In this document: positions 1 through 64,000 of the stretch, piece by piece
Numbering within the stretch: position 1 is the stretch's first letter
How the letters are laid out: each line of letters starts with the position of its first letter
NCBI GenBank assembly: GCA_040384485.1
Contig: JAZKJH010000002.1
Span: 231,951 to 295,950, forward strand
Direction of reading: 5' to 3'
From: Patescibacteria group bacterium
GTDB taxonomy: Bacteria > Patescibacteriota > Minisyncoccia > Phycocordibacterales > DATDWN01
Length of the DNA stretch: 64,000 nucleotides
Made by a program: the position numbers and the translations under genes
The notes under the pieces: generated by a model
What the model saw: only the letters and a program-made list of their open reading frames with translations
Databases searched by the model: none
What the model was told of the DNA's origin: nothing

Positions 1-1
1 T

Positions 2-223
2 ATGATCTACGGGTCATTCATCGTCTGGATCACCTGGGAGATCGAAGGCCCCACTGCCGGCGTCATCACATTCGCGGGAGCAATCATCTTCGTCTCATCA
101 TTCAAGATGTACGACGAGTATGGGTTGCTCACGTCGCTCCTGGTCTGGGTACTCGGCACTGTCATGTTCCTGGGACCGCTGGTCCACATGATGACAGGGC
201 TTCCAGAAAAGAGACTCACCTAG
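2..223 (+). CDS. C-terminal fragment of a hydrophobic membrane protein; the gene starts before the window
   Basis: The ORF is open from the window edge and its peptide is hydrophobic. This stretch is G+C-rich compared with the rest of the window. A hairpin follows the stop codon. Confidence 0.4.
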   Translation: MIYGSFIVWITWEIEGPTAGVITFAGAIIFVSSFKMYDEYGLLTSLLVWVLGTVMFLGPLVHMMTGLPEKRLT

Positions 224-345
224 AGCCGAGCCGACTTGGCTCTCCATCCCCGCCCGTCATGTTTTCCTCACGGAAAACCTCTGACGGGCATTTTTTATAT
301 TTGATTTTTGAACAGAAAAAAGTAATATGTTGGGTAGAGAGGTTC

Positions 346-747
346 ATGGTGACTGACAACAAGAAAAGTATTTATGAAGTGCTGATGGGTTTTAATCGCG
401 GAGAATACCCATCACCAAATGAGATCAAGTTAATGGGAGTTGCTTCCGACCCTTTGGCTGGACGTTTCGGAAAATGTGAAGTGGAAATGGCTGCTGGAAA
501 ACTTTTGTCTTTCTTGCAACACAGAAACAAAGGTTGGGAAGAATTCACCATCTCGGATTTGTTTGCCTACTACAAATCCAAGGGATGGAATCCGGACATG
601 ATGTTCTTTGGACTTTTAGGTCCATGGTTTGACGATGGAATGTCGACCATGGATTTCCGAGACACTGCGAATGTTTATCTCGTCGTTGGTGACAACGGGA
701 AATACTACTTCACTGACAAGTTTGTTACCAACAGCATGAGAAAGTAG
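346..747 (+). CDS. hypothetical protein
   Basis: The ORF track gives 259..747. An internal ATG at 346 is preceded by AGAGAGG at the right spacing for a ribosome-binding site. A terminator follows at 754..785. I recognise no domain. Confidence 0.5.
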   Translation: MVTDNKKSIYEVLMGFNRGEYPSPNEIKLMGVASDPLAGRFGKCEVEMAAGKLLSFLQHRNKGWEEFTISDLFAYYKSKGWNPDMMFFGLLGPWFDDGMSTMDFRDTANVYLVVGDNGKYYFTDKFVTNSMRK

Positions 748-753
748 GAAGCC

Positions 754-785
754 AGCTACCAAGACACCACTTGGTAGCTTTTTTA
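754..785 (+). terminator. rho-independent terminator
   Basis: AGCTACCAAG-ACACCA-CTTGGTAGCT followed by TTTTTT. Confidence 0.6.
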
Positions 786-1802
786 TATTTGTACTTCAAG
801 CTTACAGTTCGAAACACCAACGAATTTACAAACTTTTTCTTTATTTTCGTTATAAATAAATTCTGGAGCAAATTTGTTCAGTTTGTACGGCAGGATTTCA
901 AAAATCATTTTATCGGAATACAGTTCCATACCTACTCCGTAGCCATCAGTAGTGTTGAGAGCAAACTGATCGAACACAAAGTTACCAAGGGAAAAGAATA
1001 CTGGTTTGTTTTTATACATTCGCATTGGTTGCATCACATGCGGGTGATGCCCTACCACCACATCTGCGCCACTGTCGACGAGAGCATGTGCAATAGCTGT
1101 CTGCGTCTCGTTCTCTACAAGCTCGTACTCGTCGCCCCAGTGGATATTTACAACTAAATAATCGTTTCTAGTATCTAGTTCCTGTACTAACTTATAAAAC
1201 TCAGCTGTTATTGGTTGCATGGTCACGTCCACTCCTACAAAAGCCACCTTTTTGGCGTTTATTGTTTTCTCTATAAAACTTTTTTCAAAAGGTTTGTCCC
1301 CTATGTATTCTATCCCCGCTTTTTCCAAGAAATTTTTTGTACTGTCGACGCCTGCCTGATAACAATCATAAGCATGGTTGTTCCCTATAGTTACCATGTT
1401 CACCCCAATGCTTTTAAGCAGGGTTGGGGTCGTGTCATCGAACTGAAAGTTGTAAGATTTTTGCTGGCAATTCTCTCTCGGCATCTCAACTATCGGACCT
1501 TCTAGGTTCAGGAGGACAATATCAAAGCCTGACACAACTCCAATATCTCTCTTTATGTATTCAAAAGGATCTCGTCCCCGGTCTTCCATAATATCCCGCA
1601 CCCCCCGGTCGAACATCGCATCCCCAAAATTCAGAATCCTCGCTGGTTTTTCCGGTTCAACAAAAATATCTTTCACTGTTTCTACAACTGGGTTGTTAGC
1701 AATAACATCCGAAACGGTAGGAGCGATACTGGTGTCGCGACTTAGAAAAATTATGACTCCGAAAGCCACTAAACCCAGAACAATCCCCGCGATTTTTTTC
1801 AT
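783..1802 (-). CDS. CapA-like (poly-gamma-glutamate synthesis) metallophosphatase-family protein, secreted
   Basis: N-terminal signal or TM segment. GNNHAYD and GHHPHV motifs are typical of CapA/calcineurin-like metallophosphoesterases. Confidence 0.75.
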   Translation of the reverse strand: MKKIAGIVLGLVAFGVIIFLSRDTSIAPTVSDVIANNPVVETVKDIFVEPEKPARILNFGDAMFDRGVRDIMEDRGRDPFEYIKRDIGVVSGFDIVLLNLEGPIVEMPRENCQQKSYNFQFDDTTPTLLKSIGVNMVTIGNNHAYDCYQAGVDSTKNFLEKAGIEYIGDKPFEKSFIEKTINAKKVAFVGVDVTMQPITAEFYKLVQELDTRNDYLVVNIHWGDEYELVENETQTAIAHALVDSGADVVVGHHPHVMQPMRMYKNKPVFFSLGNFVFDQFALNTTDGYGVGMELYSDKMIFEILPYKLNKFAPEFIYNENKEKVCKFVGVSNCKLEVQI

Positions 1803-1822
1803 TTGTTTAATTCTATCAAAAT

Positions 1823-1853
1823 AAAACTTCCAAGGGCATCCCTTGGAAGTTTT
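1823..1853. terminator. bidirectional hairpin with core CCAAGGG-CAT-CCCTTGG; likely terminator of 1858..3261
   Basis: 14-bp arms (AAAACTTCCAAGGG / CCCTTGGAAGTTTT) flanked by an A-run and a T-run. The same 17-bp core recurs at 10560..10588. Confidence 0.6.
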
Positions 1854-1857
1854 ATTT

Positions 1858-3261: not shown

Positions 3262-3297
3262 TCTAATATCTAGACCATAAGTAGCCTATCCCCAAAA

Positions 3298-3320
3298 TTA
3301 CATAGGTTTAACCTATGTAA
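3298..3320. promoter_or_regulatory. palindrome P1: TTACATAGG-TTTAA-CCTATGTAA, a candidate operator
   Basis: Perfect 9-bp inverted arms with a 5-bp spacer, about 40 bp upstream of the 1858..3261 start. Related copies lie at 4211..4233 and 6373..6397, with a half-site at 4997..5004. Confidence 0.55.
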
Positions 3321-3343
3321 AAAAGCCACCTTGGGAGGTGGCT
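3319..3343 (-). terminator. rho-independent terminator of 3356..4129
   Basis: AGCCACC-TTGGGA-GGTGGCT, followed on the minus strand by a T-run. Confidence 0.6.
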
Positions 3344-3355
3344 GGTAGTCATGAA

Positions 3356-4129
3356 CTAAATTATCTTGAATGACAGATTGGAAAAATCTGGACGCCAGAT
3401 GAAATCGCCATTTGGATTATAAAGAAGTCCATATGGGTTTTCTTGTCGACGAACTAGAGTCAAAAGAAGCCTCTCTGTTCGTTCAGCGTCTTTGCTCTCT
3501 TCAATTCTGCGCAAGATTTTTCTTTCTTGTTCGATTGAAACTGGTGCTTTGAAAAGTAGGACCTTATGTAGACCCTGACTTCCCTCAACACTCAAGCTGT
3601 ACTCAAAGAGCTGTTGCGTTGCTATCGCTCCACAGGCGCCGATATACCACTGTTCGTACTTGGATGACCGAGTCAGAAGAGCGTTTTGAGAAAAGTGATC
3701 ATGTTCCCCAGCAAAGATTTTGTCAGGAAACAAAACTGTTTTGTACTCGTTCCCACCCGCAGAATGAAGCGGACGCATGGCAGGTAACTCTCCAGCGTAC
3801 CTGTACCAACTCAGCATCTGTACTGCGTAAAAATCCACCCTATGTTCGTAGTGGTCCCTCAGCCGGCCCACAATGTGACCGATATCGGGATATTCTGGAT
3901 CATCATCATCCCCATCGAAAATAATGGAGACCGGACCATCTAGTGTATACATGTCGATTCGAGGAATCAGCTCTTGCTCGACAATTCGTTTTGCATCAGC
4001 AATCGAAATGCCGTTATATGAACCCGCTCCGCGAAAAGCAATGATGTGGGCAGACTTCGCAAGCATTTCGCTCATGATCTCTTGCCATGCACTGCCAGTT
4101 TTATCCAAAACAACCAAAGGCTCTTTCAT
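3356..4129 (-). CDS. hypothetical protein, possibly a Rossmann-like (SLOG/LOG/DprA-like) nucleotide-binding fold
   Basis: 257-aa ORF. IAFRGAGSYNGI and IIFDGDDDDPE segments suggest a Rossmann-like fold, but this is a weak assignment. G+C-richer than the surrounding window. GGAGAGG lies upstream of the ATG. Confidence 0.55.
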   Translation of the reverse strand: MKEPLVVLDKTGSAWQEIMSEMLAKSAHIIAFRGAGSYNGISIADAKRIVEQELIPRIDMYTLDGPVSIIFDGDDDDPEYPDIGHIVGRLRDHYEHRVDFYAVQMLSWYRYAGELPAMRPLHSAGGNEYKTVLFPDKIFAGEHDHFSQNALLTRSSKYEQWYIGACGAIATQQLFEYSLSVEGSQGLHKVLLFKAPVSIEQERKILRRIEESKDAERTERLLLTLVRRQENPYGLLYNPNGDFIWRPDFSNLSFKII

Positions 4130-4210
4130 TTCAACGTCTTCCTCTCCTGTGAACCCGAAAACTTCTAAAATTAGAGTAGTACAAACTAGTAATTTGTCAA
4201 TACTCCCAAA

Positions 4211-4233
4211 TTACATAGGTCTCACCTATGTAG
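4211..4233. promoter_or_regulatory. palindrome P2: TTACATAGG-TCTCA-CCTATGTAG
   Basis: Same arms and CCCAAA flank as P1. On the minus strand a TTGACAAATTAC (-35-like) element follows, upstream of 3356..4129. Confidence 0.55.
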
Positions 4234-4267
4234 AGTTATCTACAGGAGAATCACGGAATGAGAGTAA

Positions 4268-4295
4268 TAAAAAAAACCGGCCTGTTACGGCCGGT
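4268..4295 (-). terminator. rho-independent terminator of 4305..4580
   Basis: CCGGCC-TGTTAC-GGCCGG preceded by a 9-nt A-run, which is a T-run on the minus strand. Confidence 0.6.
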
Positions 4296-4304
4296 CAAAA
4301 TGAA

Positions 4305-4580
4305 CTAAGAGTCGAAAGAAATTACTTGCTGGATAGGCATGGGAGGCCTGCCAGACACATCGTAGGGTTGGAAGAATTCATTGAACTCCTCCACTCTTTC
4401 TGGTGGGACTCTGAGTTTGAGTAAACGCGGGTCGTCCTTTGTAGAGTCGGCGACCGCGATCTCATCTGGCTCGGCACCAAAACGACTTAGTACTACACTG
4501 CGAAACGAGGGGTAGTCCATCATCCGGTCCAGCCAAAAAATCTGCAATCCTTCCAAACTCTCCAAAGGAACAACGAGCAT
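4305..4580 (-). CDS. hypothetical protein (91 aa)
   Basis: ORF with its own terminator. G+C-richer than the surrounding window. No recognisable domain. Confidence 0.45.
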   Translation of the reverse strand: MLVVPLESLEGLQIFWLDRMMDYPSFRSVVLSRFGAEPDEIAVADSTKDDPRLLKLRVPPERVEEFNEFFQPYDVSGRPPMPIQQVISFDS

Positions 4581-4639
4581 TTTCCTACCTCCTCCAACAT
4601 ATTATCATTTGTATTTTTTCTAGGCAAAAATTCTGTTGA

Positions 4640-5769: not shown

Positions 5770-5805
5770 AAAAAAAAGCACCACTACCCTTACGAGTAAT
5801 GGTGC
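5770..5805 (-). terminator. rho-independent terminator of 5811..6314
   Basis: GCACCACTAC...GTAATGGTGC with a T-run on the minus strand. Confidence 0.55.
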
Positions 5806-5810
5806 ACGGT

Positions 5811-6314
5811 TTAGGACTTCTGCAATTTCCTGAGAACTTTTGTACGTAGGTCCAGGACCACTTCAGTTTTTGCTACGAGGTATCCAAGGAGGGCTCCGTA
5901 GCACATCTGAGCAAGAACAGTCTCCTCGGCAAACGAGAATCCGAAGACAGAAATAACAGCAAACACTGTCACGATGCCTAGCCGGCGGAGTGCGCTAGCA
6001 AATGACAGAAAGTCTTTGTCTGTCACAACATACAACGGAGCATCTTTGAGTTTGGATCTCAGCAGAACTGCACAAACTCCGATGGTTACTGTTATTGCTC
6101 CAGGATATGGACTCATCTTGAAACCAGCTACAGATGATGCGACTACCCATGAGGAGATGAACAAACACCCCATCATGAATAGTAAATTCAACACGGCACC
6201 AAAATATCGTCTGACTTCCTTTATGTCAGTTTCTTTCCTGAAATTTTCTCTCGCAGTGTTCACTGTATCAACGAAATCGTCGACTACCTGACTTGCCATT
6301 GCAGCTCTGTCCAT
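5811..6314 (-). CDS. hypothetical multi-pass membrane protein
   Basis: Several hydrophobic helices. GGAGG ribosome-binding site 8 nt upstream. P4 and a TTGACAATTACAC promoter lie upstream. G+C-richer than the surrounding window. Confidence 0.6.
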   Translation of the reverse strand: MDRAAMASQVVDDFVDTVNTARENFRKETDIKEVRRYFGAVLNLLFMMGCLFISSWVVASSVAGFKMSPYPGAITVTIGVCAVLLRSKLKDAPLYVVTDKDFLSFASALRRLGIVTVFAVISVFGFSFAEETVLAQMCYGALLGYLVAKTEVVLDLRTKVLRKLQKS

Positions 6315-6372
6315 TTCTGAACCTCCGTCATAAGATTACAATTCCTAGTGTAATTGTCAAACTTCTAAAAAA

Positions 6373-6397
6373 CTCACATAGGACTGCCCTATGTGAG
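6373..6397. promoter_or_regulatory. palindrome P4: CTCACATAGG-ACTGC-CCTATGTGAG
   Basis: Perfect 10-bp arms. On the minus strand it is followed by TTTTTT and then TTGACAATTAC. It could double as the terminator of 6418..6969. Confidence 0.55.
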
Positions 6398-6417
6398 TTT
6401 TGTTTTTAAAAACCTAA

Positions 6418-6969
6418 CTAGTTGAGTTGAACTGAAGAAAAGTTTTCAGTAGACATCATCTGCAAAAGATCGTTCCCTTGCAAATAGCTGAGATACCTCA
6501 ACCAGTCGGTTGTGTTGCGTCCCATACGAAGGAGAACTCTCTTCTCGTCCTTGGTACGAAACGATCCAAGAGAAGACCGGTCAAAGAAAGCCATGCAAAT
6601 CTCTACTTTCTTTCGAACGATCTCCGCTTGTCTTTTGTTAAAGTCGAAAGTTGCACCGGAACGGCGCAAAATCCCCTCATACACCAGCAAGTTGTTGGCG
6701 ACAAGCTCACACTGCTGGATTTCGGATCGGTTCAGTTTGGTTTTCGGCTTTTTCAATAGCTCATTCGAGTTGTCCGCCATAACCCACGGCGAACCAAAAC
6801 GACCATCATAAGAAAACAAAGCTGTTTCGAGCAGCCGTTCGGTAAAGTACTCCACCTCTTCGTTCGAGATGTTGTGGGTTCGCCCTTGTCCCGGAGAAAC
6901 GAGCTCTCGCAAGTTCCTGCGCAGGCACACCCTGGCCAGTTCCCTGTCGTATCCAACAACAAGTCTCAT
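6418..6969 (-). CDS. hypothetical protein
   Basis: 183-aa ORF. G+C-richer than the surrounding window. No recognisable domain. Confidence 0.5.
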   Translation of the reverse strand: MRLVVGYDRELARVCLRRNLRELVSPGQGRTHNISNEEVEYFTERLLETALFSYDGRFGSPWVMADNSNELLKKPKTKLNRSEIQQCELVANNLLVYEGILRRSGATFDFNKRQAEIVRKKVEICMAFFDRSSLGSFRTKDEKRVLLRMGRNTTDWLRYLSYLQGNDLLQMMSTENFSSVQLN

Positions 6970-7024
6970 TTGACCTCCATGTTCTAGTATCTATTTTACA
7001 CAAACTAAAACAAAAAGCACCAAG

Positions 7025-8471: not shown

Positions 8472-9038
8472 TCAGATTGCGATAGCCCGACGAGCATCCT
8501 CAAGAGTGGTGACCCCATACAGGTCGAAATCAGCCTTCCCCATGCCGTCCTTTTTACCACCGTCACTGTATGGAACATATAGCCTGCCATCAGGAACAAA
8601 AATAGTTTTGAGAAGGTCTGGGTAGACAAGAGTATCACTCTTTTTATACCCAGTAATCTCGAAAATCAAATCTTCGAGAATCCGATCAAGGTCCTCCTTG
8701 GTTCCAGTATGGACAGGTCGATACGCCTCTTTGCTGCCCGCAAAAGTAAGTGTTGGGATTGGATTTAAAACAACCTTATCCCACACATTGATTTTTCCTG
8801 ACTCAAGCAGCTTGGCATGAGTTGCCTCAGCCTGTCGAGCAGAGTCTCCTCTGCAAACAGCAGTGACATCATTGTTGGTTTTGTAGTAAAACAGCAACTT
8901 AGCTGCCTTGAGTTTGCTAATTGCGAGTGCCAACTTCTTTGCATCCAGGTTATCTGACCACCAGATAAAGAGTGCACATAACCCAACGGCCGCGATAACT
9001 CCTAACAAAAGCGAAGTAAAATAGTCCACTACTGCCAC
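8472..9038 (-). CDS. hypothetical membrane-anchored protein
   Basis: N-terminal TM segment. ORF of 188 aa. Confidence 0.55.
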   Translation of the reverse strand: MAVVDYFTSLLLGVIAAVGLCALFIWWSDNLDAKKLALAISKLKAAKLLFYYKTNNDVTAVCRGDSARQAEATHAKLLESGKINVWDKVVLNPIPTLTFAGSKEAYRPVHTGTKEDLDRILEDLIFEITGYKKSDTLVYPDLLKTIFVPDGRLYVPYSDGGKKDGMGKADFDLYGVTTLEDARRAIAI

Positions 9039-9142: not shown

Positions 9143-10504
9143 TTACATTCCAACGATAACCGCTCGAGTTATCGAACCCACGTAACCAACTGAAGGTGAA
9201 ATAGATTTAGCTATTTGAAATTTAATGACAGCTGCTCGGGTGGCCGGACCAAAATAGGTTGTTTCATTCCCTACTGAACCTGACCCAGTTGTCGCAATAA
9301 CGAAACCTTTGCTGTTTAGAAACTTTTGCAATAGACGAACATCTTCACCAGTCATACCAAGTGACAGATTTCTTGTTAGATTTAAACTACTAGCTCCTGT
9401 TGAAGTCGGTGTTGGAGTCATCGGACTTGGTGTCGGAATAGTTACTGAGGCAGTGACAACAGCTCGCGTGGCTGGACCGTAATATCCATCGGCAGGAAAT
9501 ATTCGCATTGCTGTTTGATATTCAATCAAAGCAGTTTGAGTAAGTGTACCAAAATACCCTGTCGCGCCTGCTACCGCCAAACGTTTTGCTTCTGCACCTA
9601 CTGACTTTGCAATAAGGTGAAGTTGGAGAGCAGTCACTTCAGCACCTCGTGAACCGAGAGTTAAATCCCCAGTTGGAACTGTTGGTGTAGGAGTGGTGGT
9701 AGTAGGAGGTATTACTGTTGTTCCAGGAATAAAGTTCAAAGTGCTGGTGATTATAGTTGGAAGAGTGATATTTTGTGATATCGCTGAGTTAAATGTACTT
9801 CTGAAATTTATAACTAGGAGTTTCGACAAAGCATCGGCGTCGGACGTTTGAGTTAGAATCTTCGAAAGAAAAGAAATTTTCTCTGCAATCGTGAACTCTT
9901 TTGTAAGTCTCGGAAATGGATCTATGTGGTTTCTGTCGCCAGTAAATATTTCAAAGTGCAAGTGAGCAGCACCACCAGAAGCATTACCTGTGTTTCCTAC
10001 ATAACCAATAAGCGAACCTGTTTCCAAAACAGTTCCTTCGGTCACCCCTTCACCTATTTTATCTAAATGCATGTAAACAAAAGTCTCACCGCCTGGGTTG
10101 GCAGTGTACACATATAGTCCTTCGGTAGTCCCTGTGCCAGTTCTTAAAACGACTGCTGGAGTTGGCGAAACAATAGGTGTTCCTTTTACAGCCATAATAT
10201 CCTGGCCTTCGTGAAGTCTTCCTCCAGAACGTGGGTCACCAAAGTTTGGTGACATATTGCTTCTCGCAACACCGAACAAAATTGGTATTGGTACTTCAGA
10301 TACTATACTTGCAGGTAAATTACTAATTTTCTGTTGTAACTCACTCGAGTCTCTTCTCCAAGTACGGATTCTTTCATAATAGTCAGTGGTTGATTCATTT
10401 GAGCCGGTGATTTGGGAAGTTGTCGCGGTCTGTGCAGAGGAAATAATTGGAATAATTAAAAAAACAGCCATAAATAAGGCTCCGAACATATAATTTTTTT
10501 TCAT
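9143..10504 (-). CDS. M23 family metallopeptidase with two C-terminal peptidoglycan-binding (PG_binding_1-like) domains
   Basis: Signal peptide. HEGQDI...HLHFEI M23 motifs. Two LxxGxxGxxVxxLQxxL...YFGxxTxxAVxxFQ repeats. Confidence 0.85.
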   Translation of the reverse strand: MKKNYMFGALFMAVFLIIPIISSAQTATTSQITGSNESTTDYYERIRTWRRDSSELQQKISNLPASIVSEVPIPILFGVARSNMSPNFGDPRSGGRLHEGQDIMAVKGTPIVSPTPAVVLRTGTGTTEGLYVYTANPGGETFVYMHLDKIGEGVTEGTVLETGSLIGYVGNTGNASGGAAHLHFEIFTGDRNHIDPFPRLTKEFTIAEKISFLSKILTQTSDADALSKLLVINFRSTFNSAISQNITLPTIITSTLNFIPGTTVIPPTTTTPTPTVPTGDLTLGSRGAEVTALQLHLIAKSVGAEAKRLAVAGATGYFGTLTQTALIEYQTAMRIFPADGYYGPATRAVVTASVTIPTPSPMTPTPTSTGASSLNLTRNLSLGMTGEDVRLLQKFLNSKGFVIATTGSGSVGNETTYFGPATRAAVIKFQIAKSISPSVGYVGSITRAVIVGM

Positions 10505-12120: not shown

Positions 12121-12121
12121 T

Positions 12122-13445: not shown

Positions 13446-13448
13446 CAC

Positions 13449-13483: not shown

Positions 13484-13493
13484 AAATTTGTAT

Positions 13494-52224: not shown

Positions 52225-52235
52225 GTTTCGAGGTA

Positions 52236-54064: not shown

Positions 54065-54065
54065 C

Positions 54066-54569: not shown

Positions 54570-54578
54570 CACGTTCTC

Positions 54579-54618
54579 GGCCTCGATCACAGCATTGCTG
54601 TGGTCGAGGCCTTTTTTA
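54579..54618 (+). terminator. rho-independent terminator
   Basis: GGCCTCGATCACAGC-ATT-GCTGTGGTCGAGGCC followed by TTTTTT. Confidence 0.7.
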
Positions 54619-54676
54619 TTATCTGAAATATGAAAAAAATAAGAAACATTAACTAAGAGAGCTATTTATTTTCCAT

Positions 54677-54731: not shown

Positions 54732-56021
54732 TTAGTAGTTTGCTTGTATGTAAGCTCGAGTAATCGGACCAAAGTTACCCAAGGCAGGATTAACACCAAC
54801 ATTGGCCTGGAACTCTGCTAACGCAGCTCGAGTAAGTACACCAAAGTATGAAGTTGCACCAACTCTAGCAAGAGCTTTTGCAGATGCACCTATATCAAGA
54901 GAAATTAGAAAATCTTGAAGAGTCTTTACGTCTCCTCCTCTACTGCCCACACCAAGACTCATAGCGATAAGCTTGATTGGGTTTGGTGGGTTAGCTCCTG
55001 ACTGTGCTGATTGCATTATTTGAATCTGCGCCATCAAAACACTCAACTGTGCCTCAAGTGCAGCTCTTTGTTCTGCAGTACCTGAGTTCGAATTTGAAGT
55101 AGTATTTGTAGAAGTGTTTGATGGAGTGTTTGTTGTAGTTTGATTGTTTGTATTTGATGTAACAACTGGCGAGTTCGGGTTTGTAGTTCCCGAATTAGTG
55201 TTACTTGTTGAAGTAACAGTAACAACTGGTTCAACTACTGGAACAACTACTGTAGCTGTTCCTTCTGACTTTGTAATTGAGTTTGAATCGAGAGTCACTG
55301 CTGTTTGAGCCAATGCTCTACCATTTAGACTTGCACCAGTGTTAAACACAATCGCTGTCTTTCCGAGTATGTTTCCATTAAAAGCAGCTGTTGTACCGAT
55401 AGTAACCTGTCCACCTACAATCCAGTAGACATTGTTTGCCTGAGCACCACCAGATAGAACTATGTTTACACCAGAACTCACATCTAGAGTTTGTGCTATT
55501 TGGAAAATCCAAATATCATTTGGTCCACCAGACAAAGTTACATTACTTGGAACAATAACTCCGGTTCCCCATTTGTATAAACCAGGTGTAATAGTAAGAC
55601 CTCCAATGTTACCAGCACCTAACTCTGTTGCAGTCGGGTTAGTTCTTCCAGCTCCATCTGTGTATGCTGTTTCCATATCACCTATTGCTGTTATTAAATT
55701 ACTTGGAGTTGGATCTGCATACCCAGGAGCATATATTTTCCCTGTTACTATTGCAGATGTTGAAAATGCAGAAGCAGATGGAAGTGATAAAGCGAAACCT
55801 GTTATTGCACTAGCTGAGATAGGACTGACTCCCAAGTCTCCTGTAACCATAGTAGTTCCTGTAGTTGAAACTCCTGTTTTAGATAGTATTACAAAGTTTC
55901 CAGCAGTTCCTAGGTTTATAGCACCTGGTCCAGCTGCCAAAGCAGTGTTAGAAGCAGTAATCCCAAAAAGAGAGAACATTAGTAAAAACGCGAGTAACGA
56001 ATACTTGTTATTTTTTTTCAT
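54732..56021 (-). CDS. secreted DUF3494 (ice-binding-like) domain protein with a Thr/Asn/Ser-rich linker and a C-terminal peptidoglycan-binding domain
   Basis: Signal peptide. LGTAGNFVILSKTGVSTTGTTMVTGDLGVSP. C-terminal LGVGSRGGDVKTLQDFL...YFGVLTRAALAEFQ. Confidence 0.7.
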   Translation of the reverse strand: MKKNNKYSLLAFLLMFSLFGITASNTALAAGPGAINLGTAGNFVILSKTGVSTTGTTMVTGDLGVSPISASAITGFALSLPSASAFSTSAIVTGKIYAPGYADPTPSNLITAIGDMETAYTDGAGRTNPTATELGAGNIGGLTITPGLYKWGTGVIVPSNVTLSGGPNDIWIFQIAQTLDVSSGVNIVLSGGAQANNVYWIVGGQVTIGTTAAFNGNILGKTAIVFNTGASLNGRALAQTAVTLDSNSITKSEGTATVVVPVVEPVVTVTSTSNTNSGTTNPNSPVVTSNTNNQTTTNTPSNTSTNTTSNSNSGTAEQRAALEAQLSVLMAQIQIMQSAQSGANPPNPIKLIAMSLGVGSRGGDVKTLQDFLISLDIGASAKALARVGATSYFGVLTRAALAEFQANVGVNPALGNFGPITRAYIQANY

Positions 56022-57305: not shown

Positions 57306-57785
57306 TTAATTGTGAAGCTCCTGCATAATACTCTTTAAGTCCAACGGTTCGGTAACCATCTCCACCATTCCGTCATTTCCAACTTTCCATTCTTCTCTTG
57401 GCCTGTCTGCGTAAATCTCAACACCGTTTCCGTCTGGATCTCGAAGGTATACTGCTTCGCTAACTCCGTGGTCTGAAGCACCATCTAGTGGGTACTCTGC
57501 ATCGACTAACTTTTTTAATACCTTTGCCAATTCAAGCCTGGATGGATACAAAAAAGCTACATGGAACATCCCAGTGTGGCCTCTTGGTGCAGGTGTAGCA
57601 TCCTTCCCAGCCCAAGTATTCAACCCTATGTGGTGATGATACCCACCAGCAGAAAGAAATACCGCTGACTCACCATAGCGTGCTGATACTTCAAAACCTA
57701 GCAAATCACGATAAAAAGAAAGTGAACGTTCTAGGTCTGAAACTGTGAGGTGGATGTGACCGACTGTAGTTTCTTTATGTGCCAT
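57306..57785 (-). CDS. VOC-family (glyoxalase/bleomycin-resistance/dioxygenase) protein
   Basis: HIHLTVSDLERSLSFYRDLLGF. Confidence 0.7.
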   Translation of the reverse strand: MAHKETTVGHIHLTVSDLERSLSFYRDLLGFEVSARYGESAVFLSAGGYHHHIGLNTWAGKDATPAPRGHTGMFHVAFLYPSRLELAKVLKKLVDAEYPLDGASDHGVSEAVYLRDPDGNGVEIYADRPREEWKVGNDGMVEMVTEPLDLKSIMQELHN

Positions 57786-58386: not shown

Positions 58387-59022
58387 TTAAGTTATATTAT
58401 TTAAATCAATAATTTGAAATGAATTGTTGTTCACAAAAACATACTGAGCGTCATTTAGTATTATCATTGGGACTTTCATTCCATACGCATCCTTTGGCAT
58501 CTGTTCATAACTTTCTTTAAAAGTCTCAGTTCCCCAATGTGGCATAACTAAAAAATTTATCAGCCCCATTCCTCTTGTATCAAAATGATCTTCTGTATAA
58601 AACTCTAGTGACATCCCGGGCGCAGTATCCACGGCTGCAATAAAACTCCCAGTACTAGTTCCAATATACACCCCACCTTTATCTAAAAAATCTTTTATAA
58701 AAACTTCAAATCCAGATATTCTAACTTGGTTCATCATATGCACCAAACTACCTCCTTCTACGTAAACAACGTCTACATCATTTAAGTCTTTTTTTAAATC
58801 TGCCAGGCTTTTCCCAGTAATTGAATAGTCAAAAGTATCAAAACCTGCGTCAACCATAGCTTGCTTGTTATCGCGTGACCACTGCAAATCATCTTCCTCG
58901 TGACCTTTCTCTGTTGGTGTTGTTATATATACTGTGTGCAAATTTCCACTAGAAGTTACTATTCTTTTTCCAATATCTTTCGCAACAAGTTTAACCTCGG
59001 ACGTAAGAAAGAGTTGTTTCAT
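58387..59022 (-). CDS. S51 peptidase (PepE-like), the AT-rich native-looking copy
   Basis: VYVEGG and GTSTGS motifs. Confidence 0.6.
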   Translation of the reverse strand: MKQLFLTSEVKLVAKDIGKRIVTSSGNLHTVYITTPTEKGHEEDDLQWSRDNKQAMVDAGFDTFDYSITGKSLADLKKDLNDVDVVYVEGGSLVHMMNQVRISGFEVFIKDFLDKGGVYIGTSTGSFIAAVDTAPGMSLEFYTEDHFDTRGMGLINFLVMPHWGTETFKESYEQMPKDAYGMKVPMIILNDAQYVFVNNNSFQIIDLNNIT

Positions 59023-59607: not shown

Positions 59608-59967
59608 TTGTGTTTTTTATTGAACGTCCTTTTTCTTTGCAAAGTGAACCCAAGAAGTTGAAATGGAAACGAGCATAAGAGTTACATAAAACCAGGTTTC
59701 TTCGTAACCGTTGATTGCCCAAATAACAATGAGAGCTACCTGAGTTAAAATCAGAAGCGCAATTCCTATTTTTCTAGTTTTTGATGGCACAGGTTGTTGT
59801 ATTAAAAGTTATTAATCTGATTGAAGAACTACCTAACTAAGAAATTATATCATGTATGAGGACTAAGGAACTAGCTTGAAACGTCCAGTGTCTATACATT
59901 GACAAATCACCTTATTAGGTGTACAATACTTTATGGTAGTAGTTCATTCACAAAGGACAAGGAAAAG

Positions 59968-60777
59968 ATGATTCAGACACAGACACCGAACCAGATTCGC
60001 AGGACAGAGTTGTGGAAAAAAATCGCAGGGTACAAGTTTGAGGGACTCGAGACTCCCCTCATTGCAGACCGACTCCGAAGTTATTTCGGAAGCTCGGATC
60101 CGACCACCCAGGCATTCGCGGCGAAAGTCGCCAAAAAACATGGATGGACCAGGGATTTTGCACTGAGGGCAATCGCCGAGTACAAAAAGTTTGTATATCT
60201 CGGAGTGACCAGTCCCACCGAAGTCACTCCTCCTGCCGCAATCGACATCGTGTGGCACGAGCACCTGCACTTCACCCGTGAATACCGGGAGTTCTGTGCA
60301 AATGTGCTCGGAAGACACTTCGATCACTCACCCGAGTTGGTGTCAGCAGAAGAGCAGACTGGGGTCTTCAACGCCCAGTACAACGCGACCCTCGAACTCT
60401 ATCAGCGAGAGTTCAACATGGAACCACCGGTCGACATCTGGGGCAAGCCGAAGTTCGATGCGCGAAAGCTTCGGAACACGGATTACAAACCTCGGAAAAA
60501 AGAGCTTGTCGAGGACAGTGTCGAACTCATCAGTGACGACGTCCCGCTCCACCTGCTTTTTGATTCGCTTTTTGGAACAAAAGGTGTTCCTGGAAATCCG
60601 ACAGACTTCTCCATCGGAGATGATGGAAGGTCAGGAGGAGCTGGAAGCAGTGCTTCCTGGGATCCGCCCTCGACGCCTTCACCCACATATGAGAGCTCGC
60701 CTTCTCACGTCGATTCCAGTCCATCAGTCTCCGCTTGTTCGACTTCATCGTGTGGTGGTGGTTGTGGTGGTGACTAG
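59968..60777 (+). CDS. hypothetical protein with a DIVWHEHLHFTREY motif (DUF1399-like?) and a Ser/Gly/Cys-rich C-terminal tail (CSTSSCGGGCGGD)
   Basis: Start chosen at MIQTQT with an AAGGAAAAG ribosome-binding site. G+C-richer than the surrounding window. Confidence 0.5.
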   Translation: MIQTQTPNQIRRTELWKKIAGYKFEGLETPLIADRLRSYFGSSDPTTQAFAAKVAKKHGWTRDFALRAIAEYKKFVYLGVTSPTEVTPPAAIDIVWHEHLHFTREYREFCANVLGRHFDHSPELVSAEEQTGVFNAQYNATLELYQREFNMEPPVDIWGKPKFDARKLRNTDYKPRKKELVEDSVELISDDVPLHLLFDSLFGTKGVPGNPTDFSIGDDGRSGGAGSSASWDPPSTPSPTYESSPSHVDSSPSVSACSTSSCGGGCGGD

Positions 60778-60793
60778 TTAAGTTATCGGTTAT

Positions 60794-60826
60794 GTGCTCG
60801 GGAGTTATCTCCCGAGCACTTTTTAT
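60794..60826 (+). terminator. rho-independent terminator
   Basis: GTGCTCGGGAG-TTATC-TCCCGAGCAC followed by TTTTTATT. Confidence 0.65.
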
Positions 60827-60830
60827 TATA

Positions 60831-60856
60831 AAAAAACTGGAGCCGAAGCTCCAGTT
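60831..60856 (-). terminator. rho-independent terminator of 60862..61437
   Basis: CTGGAGC-CGAA-GCTCCAG preceded by AAAAAAA. Confidence 0.6.
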
Positions 60857-60861
60857 ACAAG

Positions 60862-61437
60862 TCATCTACGGAACGGTGCACGAAATATAACAAAAGCGGA
60901 TGCAAGCTGATCGGGGTCTGGTCGACCTTGCTTTACCAAGTGTTCCGGCAAAGGCGCACCTACTCCGTTTACGAATACATCGTTGTCCTTTCTCTTCCAG
61001 TATCTTCCCTCGGCTCCTTGTTGCAAACCCAATGGTTTGTAGAAACCAGGTCGGTCCGTCTTGGCCAGAAAGTAAATCACTTCCATGCCAACATAGTCGA
61101 ACTGGTCCCAGCAGTCACTACACAAGAAGTGTGCGACTTTCAGCTTGGGAATCCTTTGATCAAAAGTGCTGTAACCGCCCTCAGTGATATCAACTGCGAT
61201 GGAGTAATAACGTTTACCATCTTCGCAAAGTGACAAAATAGAGCTCACGACTTTCCCGTATACCAGCTCGTCGGACTGCCTGACAACATCCGCAAATTTC
61301 ATGTACGGACTTGAGTCAGTCTTAAGAACAACTTCCTCTACCCTACGTGGATAGCAAGGGTTAAAATACGAAAGGGTTGCTGGTGGAGCCTGGGGTTGAA
61401 CCGTGAGACCTGACAAGACAAACAGTAAAGAAATCAT
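60862..61437 (-). CDS. hypothetical secreted protein
   Basis: Signal peptide. G+C-richer than the surrounding window. Confidence 0.5.
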   Translation of the reverse strand: MISLLFVLSGLTVQPQAPPATLSYFNPCYPRRVEEVVLKTDSSPYMKFADVVRQSDELVYGKVVSSILSLCEDGKRYYSIAVDITEGGYSTFDQRIPKLKVAHFLCSDCWDQFDYVGMEVIYFLAKTDRPGFYKPLGLQQGAEGRYWKRKDNDVFVNGVGAPLPEHLVKQGRPDPDQLASAFVIFRAPFRR

Positions 61438-61538
61438 TGAACACCTCTCTCGCTATCCTATACCGTAGAATATTAAAAATCAAATATAAAATTGACAAAG
61501 CGAACAAATGATGTAGGATTTTCAAAGGAGGTGTTACG

Positions 61539-62045
61539 TTGAGAAAGTTTTCGCCGATACTTGCTGGTTTTTTTGCAGTTGGCATGATGCTGCTCCTATG
61601 GGTAACCGACACGCCCGAGGCTGGGGCTGAACGGTTGAAGTTTGTTCGCGAATCCCCCGCCTGGCTGTTCTACGGATTCGTGGCACTTGCTTCTGCCCCA
61701 GTCTTTGTCACTATCTGGATTTTGGTCAACCAAAAGCGTTGGTCAAGGATTGCAACTGCGGATAGTGTGCAAAATGCCAAAAAAATTGCACTCAGTTTAT
61801 GGCAAGTGCTAAGTGACCCAATGTATTCTGAGGAAAAGGGCAGTTGGACGTTTGTTAAGTTCCAACACTTTTCTTTTGGCAACTGGATTGTGATTCTTCC
61901 AGTGAGACCAGGACATCCAGATGTCGAGCAGTTTCGCTCTCTTCGTGAGGGTAACACTGTCGAGTTCGAAGCTCTTTCAAAAGGAATGGACTGCGCGCTG
62001 GAAAACGAAATCTGTGGCTTCCTGCGAATCAAATCCGTTTCCTAA
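61539..62045 (+). CDS. hypothetical membrane protein
   Basis: TTG start with a GGAGGTG ribosome-binding site. Two TM helices. Confidence 0.5.
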   Translation: MRKFSPILAGFFAVGMMLLLWVTDTPEAGAERLKFVRESPAWLFYGFVALASAPVFVTIWILVNQKRWSRIATADSVQNAKKIALSLWQVLSDPMYSEEKGSWTFVKFQHFSFGNWIVILPVRPGHPDVEQFRSLREGNTVEFEALSKGMDCALENEICGFLRIKSVS

Positions 62046-62047
62046 AA

Positions 62048-62088
62048 ACCAAACCGCAAAAGTAAACTTTTACTTTTGCGGTTTTTAT
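62048..62088 (+). terminator. rho-independent terminator
   Basis: ACCGCAAAAGTAAA / TTTACTTTTGCGGT followed by TTTTT. Confidence 0.65.
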
Positions 62089-62123
62089 ATAAATTTCATT
62101 TGCAAAAACAATATTTATTGTAA

Positions 62124-62150
62124 GAAAAAACCCCACGGTGTTCTGTGGGG
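62124..62150 (-). terminator. rho-independent terminator of 62171..62560
   Basis: CCCCAC-GGTGTTCT-GTGGGG preceded by AAAAAAA. Confidence 0.6.
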
Positions 62151-62170
62151 TTCTGAAAAGTACGGCTGAC

Positions 62171-62560
62171 CTAGCCGTGGGACATTCCGCGAATCTCAGT
62201 TTCCACCCTCGTAAGACTCAGAAGCTCAGTCAGTCCTGCTTCGATGAACAGGAGGTAGACCTTCTGGGCTGGAATGGAAGGAAGTGGGTCGGCCATGAAC
62301 TTATCTCGTGAATTCTGAACCAACACCTTCTCACGCACCGCAAAGTCCCGGGCATCGTAGAAGTAGAGTGGCGCACGATGGACTTTGCCATCCTCCATCT
62401 CGAATGACCCTGTGATCCAGCAGCCTGTTTCCAACACCTGGAAGCTAGTACCCTTCTCCACCATATCCATGACGGCCGTGAAAAAGGACTTGAGCGCCTC
62501 CTCGAACGAGGTGTGCTCCGAGATGGGTCCAGCGACGTAGACTTCAAATTTCTGCTTCAT
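62171..62560 (-). CDS. hypothetical protein
   Basis: 129-aa ORF. G+C-richer than the surrounding window. Confidence 0.45.
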   Translation of the reverse strand: MKQKFEVYVAGPISEHTSFEEALKSFFTAVMDMVEKGTSFQVLETGCWITGSFEMEDGKVHRAPLYFYDARDFAVREKVLVQNSRDKFMADPLPSIPAQKVYLLFIEAGLTELLSLTRVETEIRGMSHG

Positions 62561-62646
62561 TAGTTGATCCTCCGACTGTGAATGTGCTAAAAACCTATAT
62601 AAATAATAGCATAATAGCTAAGTTATGTCAAATATGTAGAGAAGGA

Positions 62647-63042
62647 TTAGTTTGTAGTTTTTTCTTCTTTCAGTCTGTATTTTATTATCTTGGCTATAAG
62701 TGCAGTTGGAAGTGGTTTATTGTATTCAATACGGACACAGCCTTTAGAAAAGCCTATTCCTTTTTTTGTGAGTTCTGTTTCGAAAGCTGTTACTCCTGAT
62801 GGAGTTGGGTAGAAACCTAGGTGGCCTTTCATAGCAGCGTAGTGAATAAAGTTTTTACCGTTTAGTTTAATAGTCGGCATGCCGTAACTTATCGTCTCCT
62901 CCCCTTTTGGGACAAGTTTATTTACAAGAGCTCGCATTTCTTTTACGTGTGGTAAAAAATTTTTTGGAACTTCTTTTATGTATTCGGTTATGTTTTTATA
63001 GGATTTCATATGTGGGTTATTTATTTTTCCAACGAGGAGCAA
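62647..63042 (-). CDS. DUF1801 (YdhG-like) protein
   Basis: ISYGMPTIKLNGKNFIHYAAMKGHLGFYP. The true start may be the internal MKSYKN. Confidence 0.55.
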   Translation of the reverse strand: MLLVGKINNPHMKSYKNITEYIKEVPKNFLPHVKEMRALVNKLVPKGEETISYGMPTIKLNGKNFIHYAAMKGHLGFYPTPSGVTAFETELTKKGIGFSKGCVRIEYNKPLPTALIAKIIKYRLKEEKTTN

Positions 63043-63262
63043 AACCTGCCATAAATGCGAAAAAGTGGGCTTTTATTTTACTCTCTCCTCTTGCAACTAT
63101 TGCTTTCACCATACCCCTCTTGAACTCTTTTAAATCATTCCCTTCGTAACATAGTTTTCCGTTTTTAAAACAGTAACTACAATACTGTTTTGACTCTCGG
63201 TTTTCACCTAGTGGGTCTTTACTAAATGGCATTAGGCAACTTTCACACATTTGGTTGGTCAT
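63017..63262 (-). CDS. small zinc-ribbon protein
   Basis: CESC...CSYC Cys pairs. It overlaps the downstream gene by about 25 bp. Confidence 0.45.
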   Translation of the reverse strand: MTNQMCESCLMPFSKDPLGENRESKQYCSYCFKNGKLCYEGNDLKEFKRGMVKAIVARGESKIKAHFFAFMAGFAPRWKNK

Positions 63263-63367
63263 GGGGATATTATAGCAAAAAGAGGTTTGGGGAGAAAAGA
63301 GAATTACTGCAATCGTTTACCAACAGATTACTACTCATAAATAAAAGAGTGGTGTAGGAATAATTTT

Positions 63368-64000
63368 TTATAAATTACTCATTGCTTCAAATATCAGAAT
63401 TTCATTTTCTTCAACTTCTTTCATTTTGTTTATAATATCTAGATTAAATTGAAGTGTATCTTGTTCTAGATCAAATGTAACAAAAGATAAGTACTTTTCT
63501 TTAAAAAGTTTTGCTAGCTCCATTGAAAGTCCATTTTTTAGCATACAGATAACTTTTTTATCCGAAGTTCCATATTTTACCTGGTCATAGAAGTCGTCAT
63601 CAATTAAACCTAATTCATTTAGTATTTCTATGTATTTCATTATGTTAAAGTCGACAAATTCTTGCTCCTCTTTGATCTTTGCAATAGCCAAGTTTACCCT
63701 TTGAGTTTCGTTTTTCTGGCTTATATTTACAAAAAGTTTTTTGTGTCCATCTCGAACTTCGTCACCCCATTTTGAACCAACATATATTATCGGGTCTCTT
63801 TCTTCCTCACGGCCTTTCCAATAATGGAGAAAGTTATTAATCATTAAAGGATAGGGTGACCCCTTCATTCTCCATGCTATAAACATTTCGTAAAAATTCT
63901 TGGTCTTCTCCTCCTGAAGTCGAGCAATGTTATCTGTATTGTTTGCTAAAGTTATTCCAAAAAAGAATATGCTACCAATGGCCGAAAGAAGAGCTTTGGG
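63368..64000 (-). CDS. hypothetical protein, 5'-partial
   Basis: The reading frame is open from the window edge (…KALLSAIGSIFFFGITLANN… looks signal-peptide or TM-like) through the track's MFIAWRM start. The true start probably lies beyond the window. Confidence 0.5.
   Translation of the reverse strand, partial: PKALLSAIGSIFFFGITLANNTDNIARLQEEKTKNFYEMFIAWRMKGSPYPLMINNFLHYWKGREEERDPIIYVGSKWGDEVRDGHKKLFVNISQKNETQRVNLAIAKIKEEQEFVDFNIMKYIEILNELGLIDDDFYDQVKYGTSDKKVICMLKNGLSMELAKLFKEKYLSFVTFDLEQDTLQFNLDIINKMKEVEENEILIFEAMSNL

Follow-up and report, generated by a model that had tools for sequence, protein, structure and literature searches.

The GC-rich segments of the 64-kb stretch of DNA analyzed here (hereafter, the window), part of a Patescibacteria (Paceibacterota-like) metagenome-assembled genome, are best explained, and in our judgment probably, as autonomous single-gene units that were acquired horizontally. 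About 20 small genes make up these islands. They differ from their surroundings in composition, are built as separate units, encode few known protein families, and are absent from the related genomes sampled, and equivalent genes turn over between relatives. Piecemeal horizontal acquisition is a known process into which these observations fit; the density seen here is unusually high.

The window as a whole has a G+C content of 39.7%, and a two-state segmentation resolves it into states of 38.0% and 50.5% G+C, the higher of which covers 13.9% of the window (segments 1-289, 3571-4534, 6487-6949, 12957-14075, 20998-21925, 32096-32926, 44351-44872, 53407-54611, and 59974-62537). Shuffled sequence run through the same segmentation gave no high-G+C segments. 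The 12 segments listed as GC-rich in an initial annotation pool to 48.3% G+C, versus 37.8% for the rest of the window, and 10 of them exceed every equal-length window outside the listed set (z between 3.2 and 6.7). Segments 38126-38572 (44.3% G+C, z 2.0, GC3 not raised) and 48050-48721 (45.1% G+C, z 2.7) are weaker, and milder GC-rich segments beyond that list lie at 8472-9038, 10645-11379, 39631-40182, and 57306-57785. The proposed pattern of GC-rich islands on an AT-rich background is thus borne out by pooled G+C, by segmentation, and by comparison with windows of the same length. The further proposal, that most segments cover exactly one gene, fits 7 of the 12 but not the other 5: two genes lie in each of 3356-4600, 5811-7000, 12900-14140, and 53393-54620, and four lie in 59899-62560, with nearly every gene of these multi-gene segments having an individual terminator. 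A search across the window for tRNA and Rfam RNA genes found none. The islands and their signals are listed in Table 1.

Table 1. GC-rich islands of the window and their associated sequence features (coordinates within the window).
Feature	Coordinates	Strand	Details
3' part of GC-rich gene, truncated by window edge	1-289	+	ORF 2-223, GC 54.5%, GC3 0.77; then hairpin terminator
Gene 3356-4129, 257 aa, SLOG/LSDAT-like fold	3324-4232	-	Terminator 3324-3343
TTGACA promoter and palindrome upstream of 3356-4129	4213-4231 (palindrome)	-	
Gene 4305-4580, 91 aa	4275-4580	-	GC 50%; GGAGG Shine-Dalgarno site; terminator 4275-4296
Gene 5811-6314, 167 aa, membrane protein	5778-6314	-	Terminator 5778-5805
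Gene 6418-6969, 183 aa	6369-6969	-	GC3 0.58; palindromic hairpin 6369-6401 downstream
Moderate island, gene 8472-9038, 188 aa	8440-9038	-	GC 45.9%; not on initial list
Moderate island, gene 10645-11379, 244 aa	10604-11379	-	GC 44.9%; strong terminator 10604-10630; not on initial list
Gene 12732/12738-13445, BtpA-like (slightly under Pfam cut-off)	12726-13478	+	Terminator 13449-13478
Gene 13533-14135, 200 aa, no family	13502-14135	-	Terminator 13502-13527; convergent with 12732/12738-13445
Gene 21091-21927, 278 aa	21080-21927	-	GC 51.5%; terminator 21080-21108
GC-rich S51 peptidase E gene 32141-32908	32096-32996	-	Perfect TTGACA-18-TATAAT promoter 32967-32996; hairpin near 32096-32131
Weak island, HTH-like gene 38126-38572	38126-38622	+	GC1 and GC2 high, GC3 background-like; terminator 38598-38622
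Gene 44386-44889, secreted, 167 aa	44351-44952	-	Promoter 44921-44948; terminator 44351-44379
Moderate island, HAD hydrolase 48050-48661/48721	48020-48721	-	Terminator 48020-48039
Gene 52236-52823, 195 aa, HExxH motif	52193-52823	-	Terminator 52193-52224
Two-gene GC-rich unit	53362-54611	+	Promoter 53362-53390; lipoprotein 53450-54064; membrane protein 54066-54569
Terminator of two-gene unit	54579-54611	+	15-bp stem
Gene 59968-60777, GRDP/TIGR04222-like	59899-60819	+	Promoter 59899-59927; terminator 60794-60819
Gene 60862-61437, 191 aa	60835-61498	-	Terminator 60835-60856; promoter 61470-61498
Gene 61539-62045, 168 aa, membrane	61492-62084	+	Promoter 61492-61519; hairpin 62051-62084
Gene 62171-62560, 129 aa	62131-62631	-	GC3 0.68; promoter 62603-62631 (11/12 match with TG); hairpin near 62131-62150

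The deviation extends to codon usage, where GC3 is 0.41-0.68 for island genes versus 0.22-0.42 for background genes and where a leave-one-out codon log-likelihood separates the two classes completely (positive for 17 of 17 island genes, negative for 53 of 53 background genes). All G-ending and C-ending codons are commoner in island genes, and the rise of the G-ending codons equals that of the C-ending ones; AAG, GAG, CAG, CTG, CCG, ACG, and CGG all increase, along with GC1 and GC2, and ATA falls from 0.43 in the background to 0.09. At the protein level, Arg rises from 3.6% to 6.5%, and Lys, Ile, and Asn are rarer. The dinucleotide distance (delta*) separating islands from background amounts to 120, compared with a null of 33 +/- 9, and that between two halves of the island set is only 28; the set is as homogeneous in composition as a single genome. 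Using a regression built on 69 Patescibacteria loci, we estimate that the strong islands imply a source G+C of 0.48 (GC1), 0.51 (GC2), and 0.52 (GC3), and the background genes 0.38, 0.36, and 0.38, respectively. By G+C, codon usage, and oligonucleotide signature alike, then, the islands have the composition of horizontally acquired genes, although their uniformity, with all codon positions pointing to approximately 0.48-0.52, makes them unlike imports from assorted donors. The weak island carrying the HTH-like gene could be either native or an acquisition old enough to have ameliorated.

The islands are also set apart by their signals. A strong hairpin followed by a T-run lies 3' of the stop codon in 18 of 20 island genes but only 8 of 53 background genes (Fisher p = 4e-9), in agreement with the initial proposal that the genes have their own GC-rich terminator hairpins; the hairpins have no sequence in common. 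A promoter matching the consensus at 10 or more of 12 positions lies upstream of 6 of 20 island genes versus 3 of 53 background genes, near-consensus promoters can be recognized by sequence pattern for 6-9 of the 20, and GGAGG sites precede most island-gene starts. As far as such patterns can tell, the islands are autonomous units, each consisting of a single ORF between its own promoter and its own intrinsic terminator. Searches for insertion scars, integrases (among the proteins scanned), tRNA genes, and conserved cassette ends found none, and the lack of all four counts against acquisition. Flanking repeats were likewise sought, and none was found apart from the regulatory palindrome.

The proteins that the islands encode mostly defy annotation. 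Pfam matches above the cut-off were obtained for 2 of 19 island proteins versus 14 of 20 background proteins; these searches back the calls of a HAD hydrolase and an S51 peptidase, and of the suggested "lipoprotein/LemA-like" proteins, the lipoprotein assignment is plausible from sequence and the LemA likeness lacks Pfam support. Among 15 billion proteins, none of 10 island proteins tested has a relative of at least 90% identity outside its own genome; the protein of 21091-21927 matches only itself among 5.8 billion proteins, and the best match of the 3356-4129 protein is at 56%. In 1 Mb of related genomes, themselves no nearer than approximately 70-78% protein identity to the genome of the window, we found homologues of 24 background genes and of no island gene. 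For two island families, distant homologues occur on plasmids from unrelated phyla. No close homologue in a compositionally matching donor was found for any of the 10 proteins, so that the "higher-GC donor" is a putative one, read from composition. Because the strong islands show no sign of amelioration, a close donor would be expected; none turned up among the 90% protein clusters, the viral contigs (0 of 4), or PHROGs, and this counts against acquisition.

The GC-rich S51 gene matches PF03575 at 138 bits (cut-off 23.9), and the AT-rich S51 copy at 58387-59022 also matches Pfam (71 bits); the two share only 24% identity across 129 residues, and the initial suggestion that they are xenologues must be abandoned. 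The GC-rich gene heads a conserved Parcubacteria cluster comprising S51, a gene of ~1500 aa, and a gene of ~430 aa, and is no random insert. Its nearest relatives are other Patescibacteria (57-65% identity, best 65%). Orthologues are GC-rich in other AT-rich genomes too. Across five genomes, AT-rich or mid-GC, the family forms a GC-rich island, with the context differing in two; S51 composition is ordinary in two 50% G+C genomes. The identities of S51 and of the neighboring 430-aa protein are in mild conflict.

Turnover of equivalent genes is seen in comparisons between relatives, with gain, loss, and replacement clear in related genome pairs rather than in the window's own islands. A GC-rich gene present in one locus (L068) is absent from its relative (L069), where the flanking genes are adjacent. 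In a second pair (L038/L079), GC-rich alleles only 30% identical occupy one slot between promoter and terminator flanks that are ~95% identical. In a third (L036/L042), a shared GC-rich gene has a four-fold-site identity of 0.75, versus ~0.5 in the flanks, and an amino-acid identity among the lowest at the locus; on these sequence comparisons the gene is younger than its flanks, having coalesced later, and its GC4 of 0.47 and 0.35 is read as loss. Among atypical ORFs, AT-rich hosts have 23 that are GC-rich and none that is AT-rich, and hosts of at least 0.38 G+C have both kinds (29 GC-rich versus 21 AT-rich).

Foreign composition, predicted separate transcription units, absence, and turnover support the acquisition of single genes proposed initially, while uniform composition and an implied source of 0.48-0.52 speak against an assortment of donors. 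From these patterns we infer which way the genes moved, where they came from, and how they were inserted. Small units, each comprising a promoter, a Shine-Dalgarno site, a single ORF (in rare cases a pair), and an intrinsic terminator, would have been taken up and placed in the gaps between operons of a Patescibacteria chromosome that is itself AT-rich (38%). Judged by composition, the gene pool that supplied them would lie near 50% G+C; it most probably consists of other Patescibacteria, or of mobile elements that circulate among these bacteria. Carrying their own signals, the units could be expressed at any landing site and leave the neighbors undisturbed. They would evolve fast, relatives would gain, lose, and swap them, probably via recombination in conserved flanks, and their third codon positions would drift over time toward the AT-richness of the host.

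Several known systems resemble this arrangement in part. Horizontal transfer, mostly within the phylum, has been credited with as much as 13% of genome length in Patescibacteria (PMC12455944), in line with the GC-rich fraction of 14% in the window and with the Patescibacteria best matches of S51; the transfers in that study were identified by donor-recipient pairs, whereas no donor was found for the window islands, and the regular promoter-ORF-terminator build and uniform composition are described from the window and not drawn from that study. Classical genomic islands share the atypical base composition and accessory gene content, but are large (usually >10 kb), tRNA-adjacent, integrase-bearing, and bounded by direct repeats; the window units measure only 0.3-2.7 kb, and no tRNA gene, integrase, or flanking direct repeats accompany them. 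Integron gene cassettes are likewise mobile single-ORF units, often of unknown function, whose ORF is followed by a hairpin-forming sequence; in an array, the promoterless ORFs lie near an integrase and each precedes a conserved, imperfect inverted repeat of attC type. The hairpins in the window are instead ordinary terminators with T-runs and without conserved sequence, the units are scattered and have their own promoters, and no integrase is present. In replacement-type flexible genomic islands, hypervariable slots are exchanged when their conserved flanks recombine. The L038/L079 swap of a coding sequence between conserved flanks resembles this, as does the slot 3' of the ~430-aa gene, whose gene content differs between the window, L082, and L084; here, unlike in those islands, only one gene occupies the slot, and the composition of its alleles is foreign to the host.

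Among the alternatives, the one that fares best, although we consider it unlikely, holds that these are long-term resident, fast-evolving, separately transcribed cassette genes rather than recent imports, with alleles exchanged within the pan-genome and GC-richness actively kept up, either through a GC bias linked to recombination or through selection acting on DNA or transcript. S51 adjoins the ~1500-aa gene in three AT-rich genomes (those of the window, L088, and L090) and is GC-rich at that cluster position in each, with synonymous sites near saturation, and a tandem metallophosphoesterase (beside ABC-F in two cases) is GC-rich in four genomes, again with saturated synonymous sites. Both cases tell against acquisition, and the persistence of GC-richness across deep splits is unexplained by a simple one-off transfer. 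Residence would also suit the L038/L079 alleles, both GC-rich between conserved signals, the uniform composition of the 17 islands, the absence of a donor for all 10 proteins, and the association with terminators, which across the window and 85 related loci is specific for GC-rich atypical genes (81% versus 19%, p = 2e-18) and is not seen for AT-rich atypical genes in GC-richer hosts, a further point against acquisition. Against residence, all three codon positions and the amino acids are shifted, with G-ending and C-ending codons rising equally, and we know of no selective regime that produces such a shift. Moreover, one S51 orthologue, from a genome of 35% G+C, is AT-rich, the L036/L042 gene is losing GC4 and coalesces later than its flanks, presence and absence differ between closely related genomes, and the relatives of the window lack the island genes.

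It is improbable that the islands are remnants of phage or defense islands, that is, morons or anti-phage genes brought by viruses. Phage morons, a concept from lambdoid phage comparisons, are extra single genes that bring along a promoter and a terminator and whose base composition is atypical. The islands match this architecture (one gene flanked by a sigma-70-type promoter and by an intrinsic terminator, unlike its neighbors in composition), as does the L068/L069 insertion between genes adjacent in the relative; the SLOG/LSDAT-like fold of 3356-4129 is of a type found in conflict systems, and the S51 homologue of L091 sits amid GmrSD, PIF1, and T5orf172 genes. Unlike morons, however, the islands lie in a bacterial chromosome among chromosomal genes and at a density of ~20 units in 64 kb. 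PHROGs gave 0 matches for 20 proteins, four scans of viral contigs found no close relatives, tblastn against 50,697 phage records gave a weak domain match only, PADLOC returned one HTH match among 10 proteins, and no integrase, capsid, or terminase gene was found among the window genes scanned.

Still less probable is that the islands are native, highly expressed genes with codon usage shaped by translational selection. The near-consensus promoters, strong terminators, and predicted separate transcription units of the islands would suit such genes, but the rise across so many codons, GC1, GC2, and Arg indicates a general G+C shift rather than a preference for optimal codons, the products look like accessory proteins that defy annotation rather than those of translation or core metabolism, and relatives lack the genes. 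An assembly or binning artefact joining pieces of a higher-GC organism into the contig, as a metagenome-assembled genome with abrupt composition changes at segment borders might suggest, can practically be dismissed, since a Logan contig built independently matches positions 11989-27647 (15.7 kb) at 100% identity, through three islands and both flanks, which excludes the chimera that the initial annotation had considered, all ~40 borders are intergenic, at promoters and terminators, island genes share Shine-Dalgarno and promoter types with their neighbors, and the same pattern recurs in dozens of unrelated MAGs.

A broader possibility, which we put forward tentatively and regard as doubtful, is that AT-rich Patescibacteria possess a lineage-wide class of cassette genes: single, fast-evolving, mostly family-less ORFs with their own promoter and strong terminator, whose coding sequences are swapped precisely between conserved regulatory flanks and whose G+C of ~50% persists across deep divergences. 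If true, this would point to either a dedicated mobile gene pool, uniform in composition and shared across the phylum, or an unknown mechanism that maintains GC in these genes.

The window has an overall G+C content of 39.7% across its 64 kb, and a two-state segmentation divides it into a 38.0% state and a 50.5% state, the latter occupying 13.9% of the window and being absent from shuffled sequence. The 12 GC-rich segments proposed in the initial annotation have a pooled G+C of 48.3%, versus 37.8% outside them, and 10 of the 12 lie above every same-length window elsewhere (38126-38572 and 48050-48721 are the weaker two); four milder segments that had been missed are listed in the table. Per gene, G+C at third codon positions (GC3) spans 0.41-0.68 in the GC-rich genes, hereafter islands, and 0.22-0.42 in the AT-rich background. 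Because Rfam and tRNA scans of the window gave no matches, structural RNA genes do not explain the GC-rich stretches, and a non-coding RNA origin is further opposed by the proper Shine-Dalgarno sites of the island ORFs and their coding-type patterns of G+C across the three codon positions (GC1, GC2, and GC3). The mosaic in composition is genuine and has strong statistical backing, with segmentation, codon log-likelihood, and dinucleotide-signature distance (delta*) all finding the deviation that the annotation had anticipated. A useful contrast to the islands is offered by two secreted proteins of background composition (9143-10504 and 54732-56021), in which GC1 and GC2 are high and GC3 is very low (0.22-0.28); they have in common repeated C-terminal modules (repeat family D1) that resemble peptidoglycan-binding domains.

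Codon and amino-acid usage shift together in the islands. All G- and C-ending codons rise, the ATA share of Ile codons falls from 0.43 in the background to 0.09, TTA usage falls from 0.22 to 0.04, Arg increases from 3.6% to 6.5%, and Lys, Ile, and Asn are lower; this is the look of genes from a genome of about 50% G+C. Leave-one-out codon log-likelihoods are positive for 17 of 17 core island genes and negative for 53 of 53 background genes, with some 10 genes intermediate. The delta* between pooled islands and background is 120 (null 33 ± 9), while splitting the islands into two halves gives only 28 between them, no more than two samples from a single genome would show; the islands do not look like imports from the assorted donors suggested initially. 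None of 69 fetched loci of related Patescibacteria genomes, nor an E. coli control, matched the island signature (best delta* 60). When 69 Patescibacteria loci are used to calibrate GC1, GC2, and GC3 against genome G+C, the three values imply a source G+C of 0.48, 0.51, and 0.52 for the strong islands and 0.38, 0.36, and 0.38 for the background. A graded GC3 series at constant GC1 and GC2 is suggestive of amelioration, although this argument is partly circular, the groups having been picked by G+C.

The islands are also built alike. As had been noted from the sequence, most carry their own GC-rich terminator: a hairpin plus T-run follows 18 of 20 island genes versus 8 of 53 background genes (p = 4e-9), typically as a clean G+C-rich hairpin of 8-15 bp and then the T-run, 5-25 nt past the stop codon (the hairpin at 21080-21108 was added by a separate terminator scan). 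The same association holds in about 85 related loci, where a strong terminator accompanies 38 of 47 GC-rich ORFs versus 208 of 1072 others (p = 2e-18). Among the predicted promoters, the one at 32967-32996 is a perfect TTGACA-18-TATAAT with TG, others match 10-11 of 12 positions (59899, 62631, 61492, 53362, 44948, and 48706), and most island genes have GGAGG 6-12 nt ahead of the start codon. Within 59899-62560, four genes of alternating orientation each have a predicted promoter and terminator of their own. Neither conserved unit ends, flanking repeats, an integrase, nor a tRNA gene was found for the island units. A search for direct repeats as insertion scars gave a single convincing pair (3292-3319 and 4205-4232), which we rejected as a scar: it is a palindrome, ACATAGG-N5-CCTATGT, present three times (3300-3318, 4213-4231, and 6376-6394) in a window where no copy is expected. 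Because each of the three precedes a gene start (40-100 nt upstream of the minus-strand starts at 3261, 4129, and 6314), the palindrome is more likely an operator, and it looks like that of one common regulator over two island genes and one background gene.

The island proteins are largely outside known families. Only 2 of 19 passed the Pfam cut-off, versus 14 of 20 small background genes, namely the S51 (peptidase E family) protein at 32141-32908 and a HAD protein at 48050-48721; a BtpA-like protein (12726-13445) and a GRDP-like protein (59899-60777) fell just under it. Among 10 island proteins, PADLOC gave one match (HTH) and NCBIfam nothing beyond the same sub-threshold BtpA match. All 10 island proteins that were checked against 15 billion proteins for close relatives sit in 90%-identity clusters made up of this genome only. 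The ORF at 21091-21927 found only itself among 5.8 billion proteins; for background genes, three look-ups by exact protein sequence gave no record. The ORF at 3356-4129 comes from a rare family that, with clustering at 50% identity, numbers 61 clusters among 1.84 billion (best match 56%; no Pfam match). Its predicted structure, computed with the family alignment as input (pLDDT 93.8), adopts the TRPM N-terminal MHR1/2 fold, which is of the SLOG/LSDAT nucleotide-binding type, so this ORF encodes a genuine protein. Judging from sequence, signal peptides or membrane helices are present in about half of the island proteins. Two island families have plasmid homologues in unrelated phyla at 28-41% identity: the lipoprotein at 53450-54064 (31-37%; Deinococcus, Bacillus, Aneurinibacillus, haloarchaea) and the GRDP/TIGR04222-like protein at 59968-60777 (28-41%; Rhizobium, Ralstonia, cyanobacteria).

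Turnover of such genes was read from close pairs among the fetched related loci rather than from the window's own species. For the ABC-F protein (17817-19283), identity to its counterparts in Paceibacterota, Taylorbacteria, and other Parcubacteria MAGs is 66-78%, and synteny around its gene across 80 related genomes is poor. One locus (L068) has a strongly GC-rich gene and three others that are absent from the otherwise syntenic L069. A pair of closely related genomes has a GC-rich 167-aa gene in one and the same slot (L038 1390-1893; L079 7630-8133). The flanks, promoter region and terminator included, are about 95% identical, yet the two coding sequences defy alignment and their proteins share 30% identity; the coding sequence has been exchanged exactly between conserved promoter region and conserved terminator. 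A GC-rich gene common to L036 and L042 has a four-fold-site identity of 0.75 versus about 0.5 in 19 flanking genes, an amino-acid identity of 0.79 (among the lowest of the locus), and four-fold-site G+C of 0.47 and 0.35 where the background is near 0.19; the gene is weakly constrained, postdates the split of the two genomes, and is losing G+C. Taking all loci together, hosts of less than 0.38 G+C hold 23 GC-rich and no AT-rich atypical ORFs, and hosts at or above 0.38 hold 29 and 21, as exchange among genomes of differing G+C would be expected to produce.

The S51 gene calls for a correction of the initial annotation. It had been taken for a xenologue of the AT-rich copy at 58387-59022, but the two are only 24% identical over 129 residues; they belong to separate subfamilies and are not xenologues. 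Nor is it a random single-gene insert: it stands first in a cluster conserved across Parcubacteria (S51, one or two proteins of about 1400-1550 aa, and a protein of about 430 aa), found also in Sungbacteria (L085), Yanofskybacteria (L088), L090, and L092; L083 has it too, but with another type of S51. The window has two tandem copies of the large protein (27801-32000 and 23291-27715, 49% identical). Downstream of the 430-aa gene, the window, L082, and L084 differ in which genes fill the slot. A metagenome scan with the 430-aa protein found three loci only (54-71% identity). The best S51 matches (57-65%) are unnamed metagenome proteins or Patescibacteria, with no other phylum named among them. 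Four orthologues in AT-rich genomes are GC-rich (table), those in two genomes of about 50% G+C (L085, L092) are near host composition, and one (L094, a 35% G+C genome) is AT-rich; identities are discordant with the neighboring 430-aa protein, for which Sungbacteria are the outgroup, as they are not for S51. This pattern fits exchange among Patescibacteria of differing G+C followed by amelioration, and GC-rich S51 copies can hold one conserved position across several AT-rich genomes. Separately, L088, whose genome is 41% G+C, contains a stretch of 67.5% G+C (770-1261) that lacks an Rfam match and whose ORF looks spurious.

Features of the window and of related loci
Feature	Locus	Position	Remarks
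Milder GC-rich segment	window	8472-9038	
Milder GC-rich segment	window	10645-11379	
Milder GC-rich segment	window	39631-40182	
Milder GC-rich segment	window	57306-57785	
S51 cluster	window	21989-32908	~1500-aa and ~430-aa proteins without Pfam family
S51 orthologue	L088		GC3 0.53; neighbors 0.33-0.39
S51 orthologue	L090		GC3 0.62
S51 orthologue	L091		GC3 0.66; different, defence-like context
S51 orthologue	L093		GC3 0.61; different context
Metallophosphoesterase-like gene	L018	7335-8468	
Metallophosphoesterase-like gene	L022	1892-3037	
Metallophosphoesterase-like gene	L024	2212-3519	
Metallophosphoesterase-like gene	L033	11552-12742	

We favor, with moderate confidence, the view that autonomous single-gene units were repeatedly acquired by horizontal transfer from a pool near 50% G+C. 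That pool would most likely lie within Patescibacteria or their mobile elements; once acquired, the units would evolve fast at the protein level, be replaced, and ameliorate. A published survey (PMC12455944) in which horizontal transfer, mostly intra-phylum, makes up as much as 13% of the length of Patescibacteria genomes agrees with this reading. The initial interpretation was right about horizontal transfer in kind; its assorted donors, xenologue, and random single-gene inserts were wrong or unproven.

The main rival, that the islands are cassette genes resident in these lineages and kept GC-rich by some means, seems unlikely but draws support from four results: the islands look un-ameliorated and yet no donor turned up, the L038 and L079 alleles are both GC-rich, the terminator association is missing from AT-rich atypical genes, and GC-rich S51 and metallophosphoesterase genes hold conserved positions across genomes with saturated synonymous sites. 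The latter, a tandem gene near ABC-F with motifs identified by eye, exceeds host G+C by 0.08-0.13 in four of four genomes, its synonymous sites being saturated between them, and simple recent transfer does not account for it. Translational selection is poorly supported as the source of island codon usage, since the shift is a general one toward G+C that includes AAG, GAG, CAG, and CTG; in an AT-rich genome such selection would not give the codon and amino-acid changes seen. An assembly error is also poorly supported: a Logan contig (run SRR26324625) is 100% identical to 11989-27647, covering three GC-rich segments with both flanks, so the chimera considered at the outset is very unlikely. A phage origin is poorly supported too, with PHROGs matching 0 of 20 island proteins and scans of phage records and viral contigs for island proteins empty.

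Patescibacteria have tiny genomes and rely on other cells, and how they gain new functions is therefore an open question. The finding is a clear but ordinary case of horizontal gene acquisition, and the window a dense, tidy example of a known process, with a few features left unexplained. Compositionally foreign single-gene units make up about one gene in four here, with a regular predicted promoter-ORF-terminator build, and the link between GC-richness and terminators recurs in dozens of related genomes. If one common pool supplies these units, they would offer a practical handle on gene flow in the phylum and on many family-less proteins.
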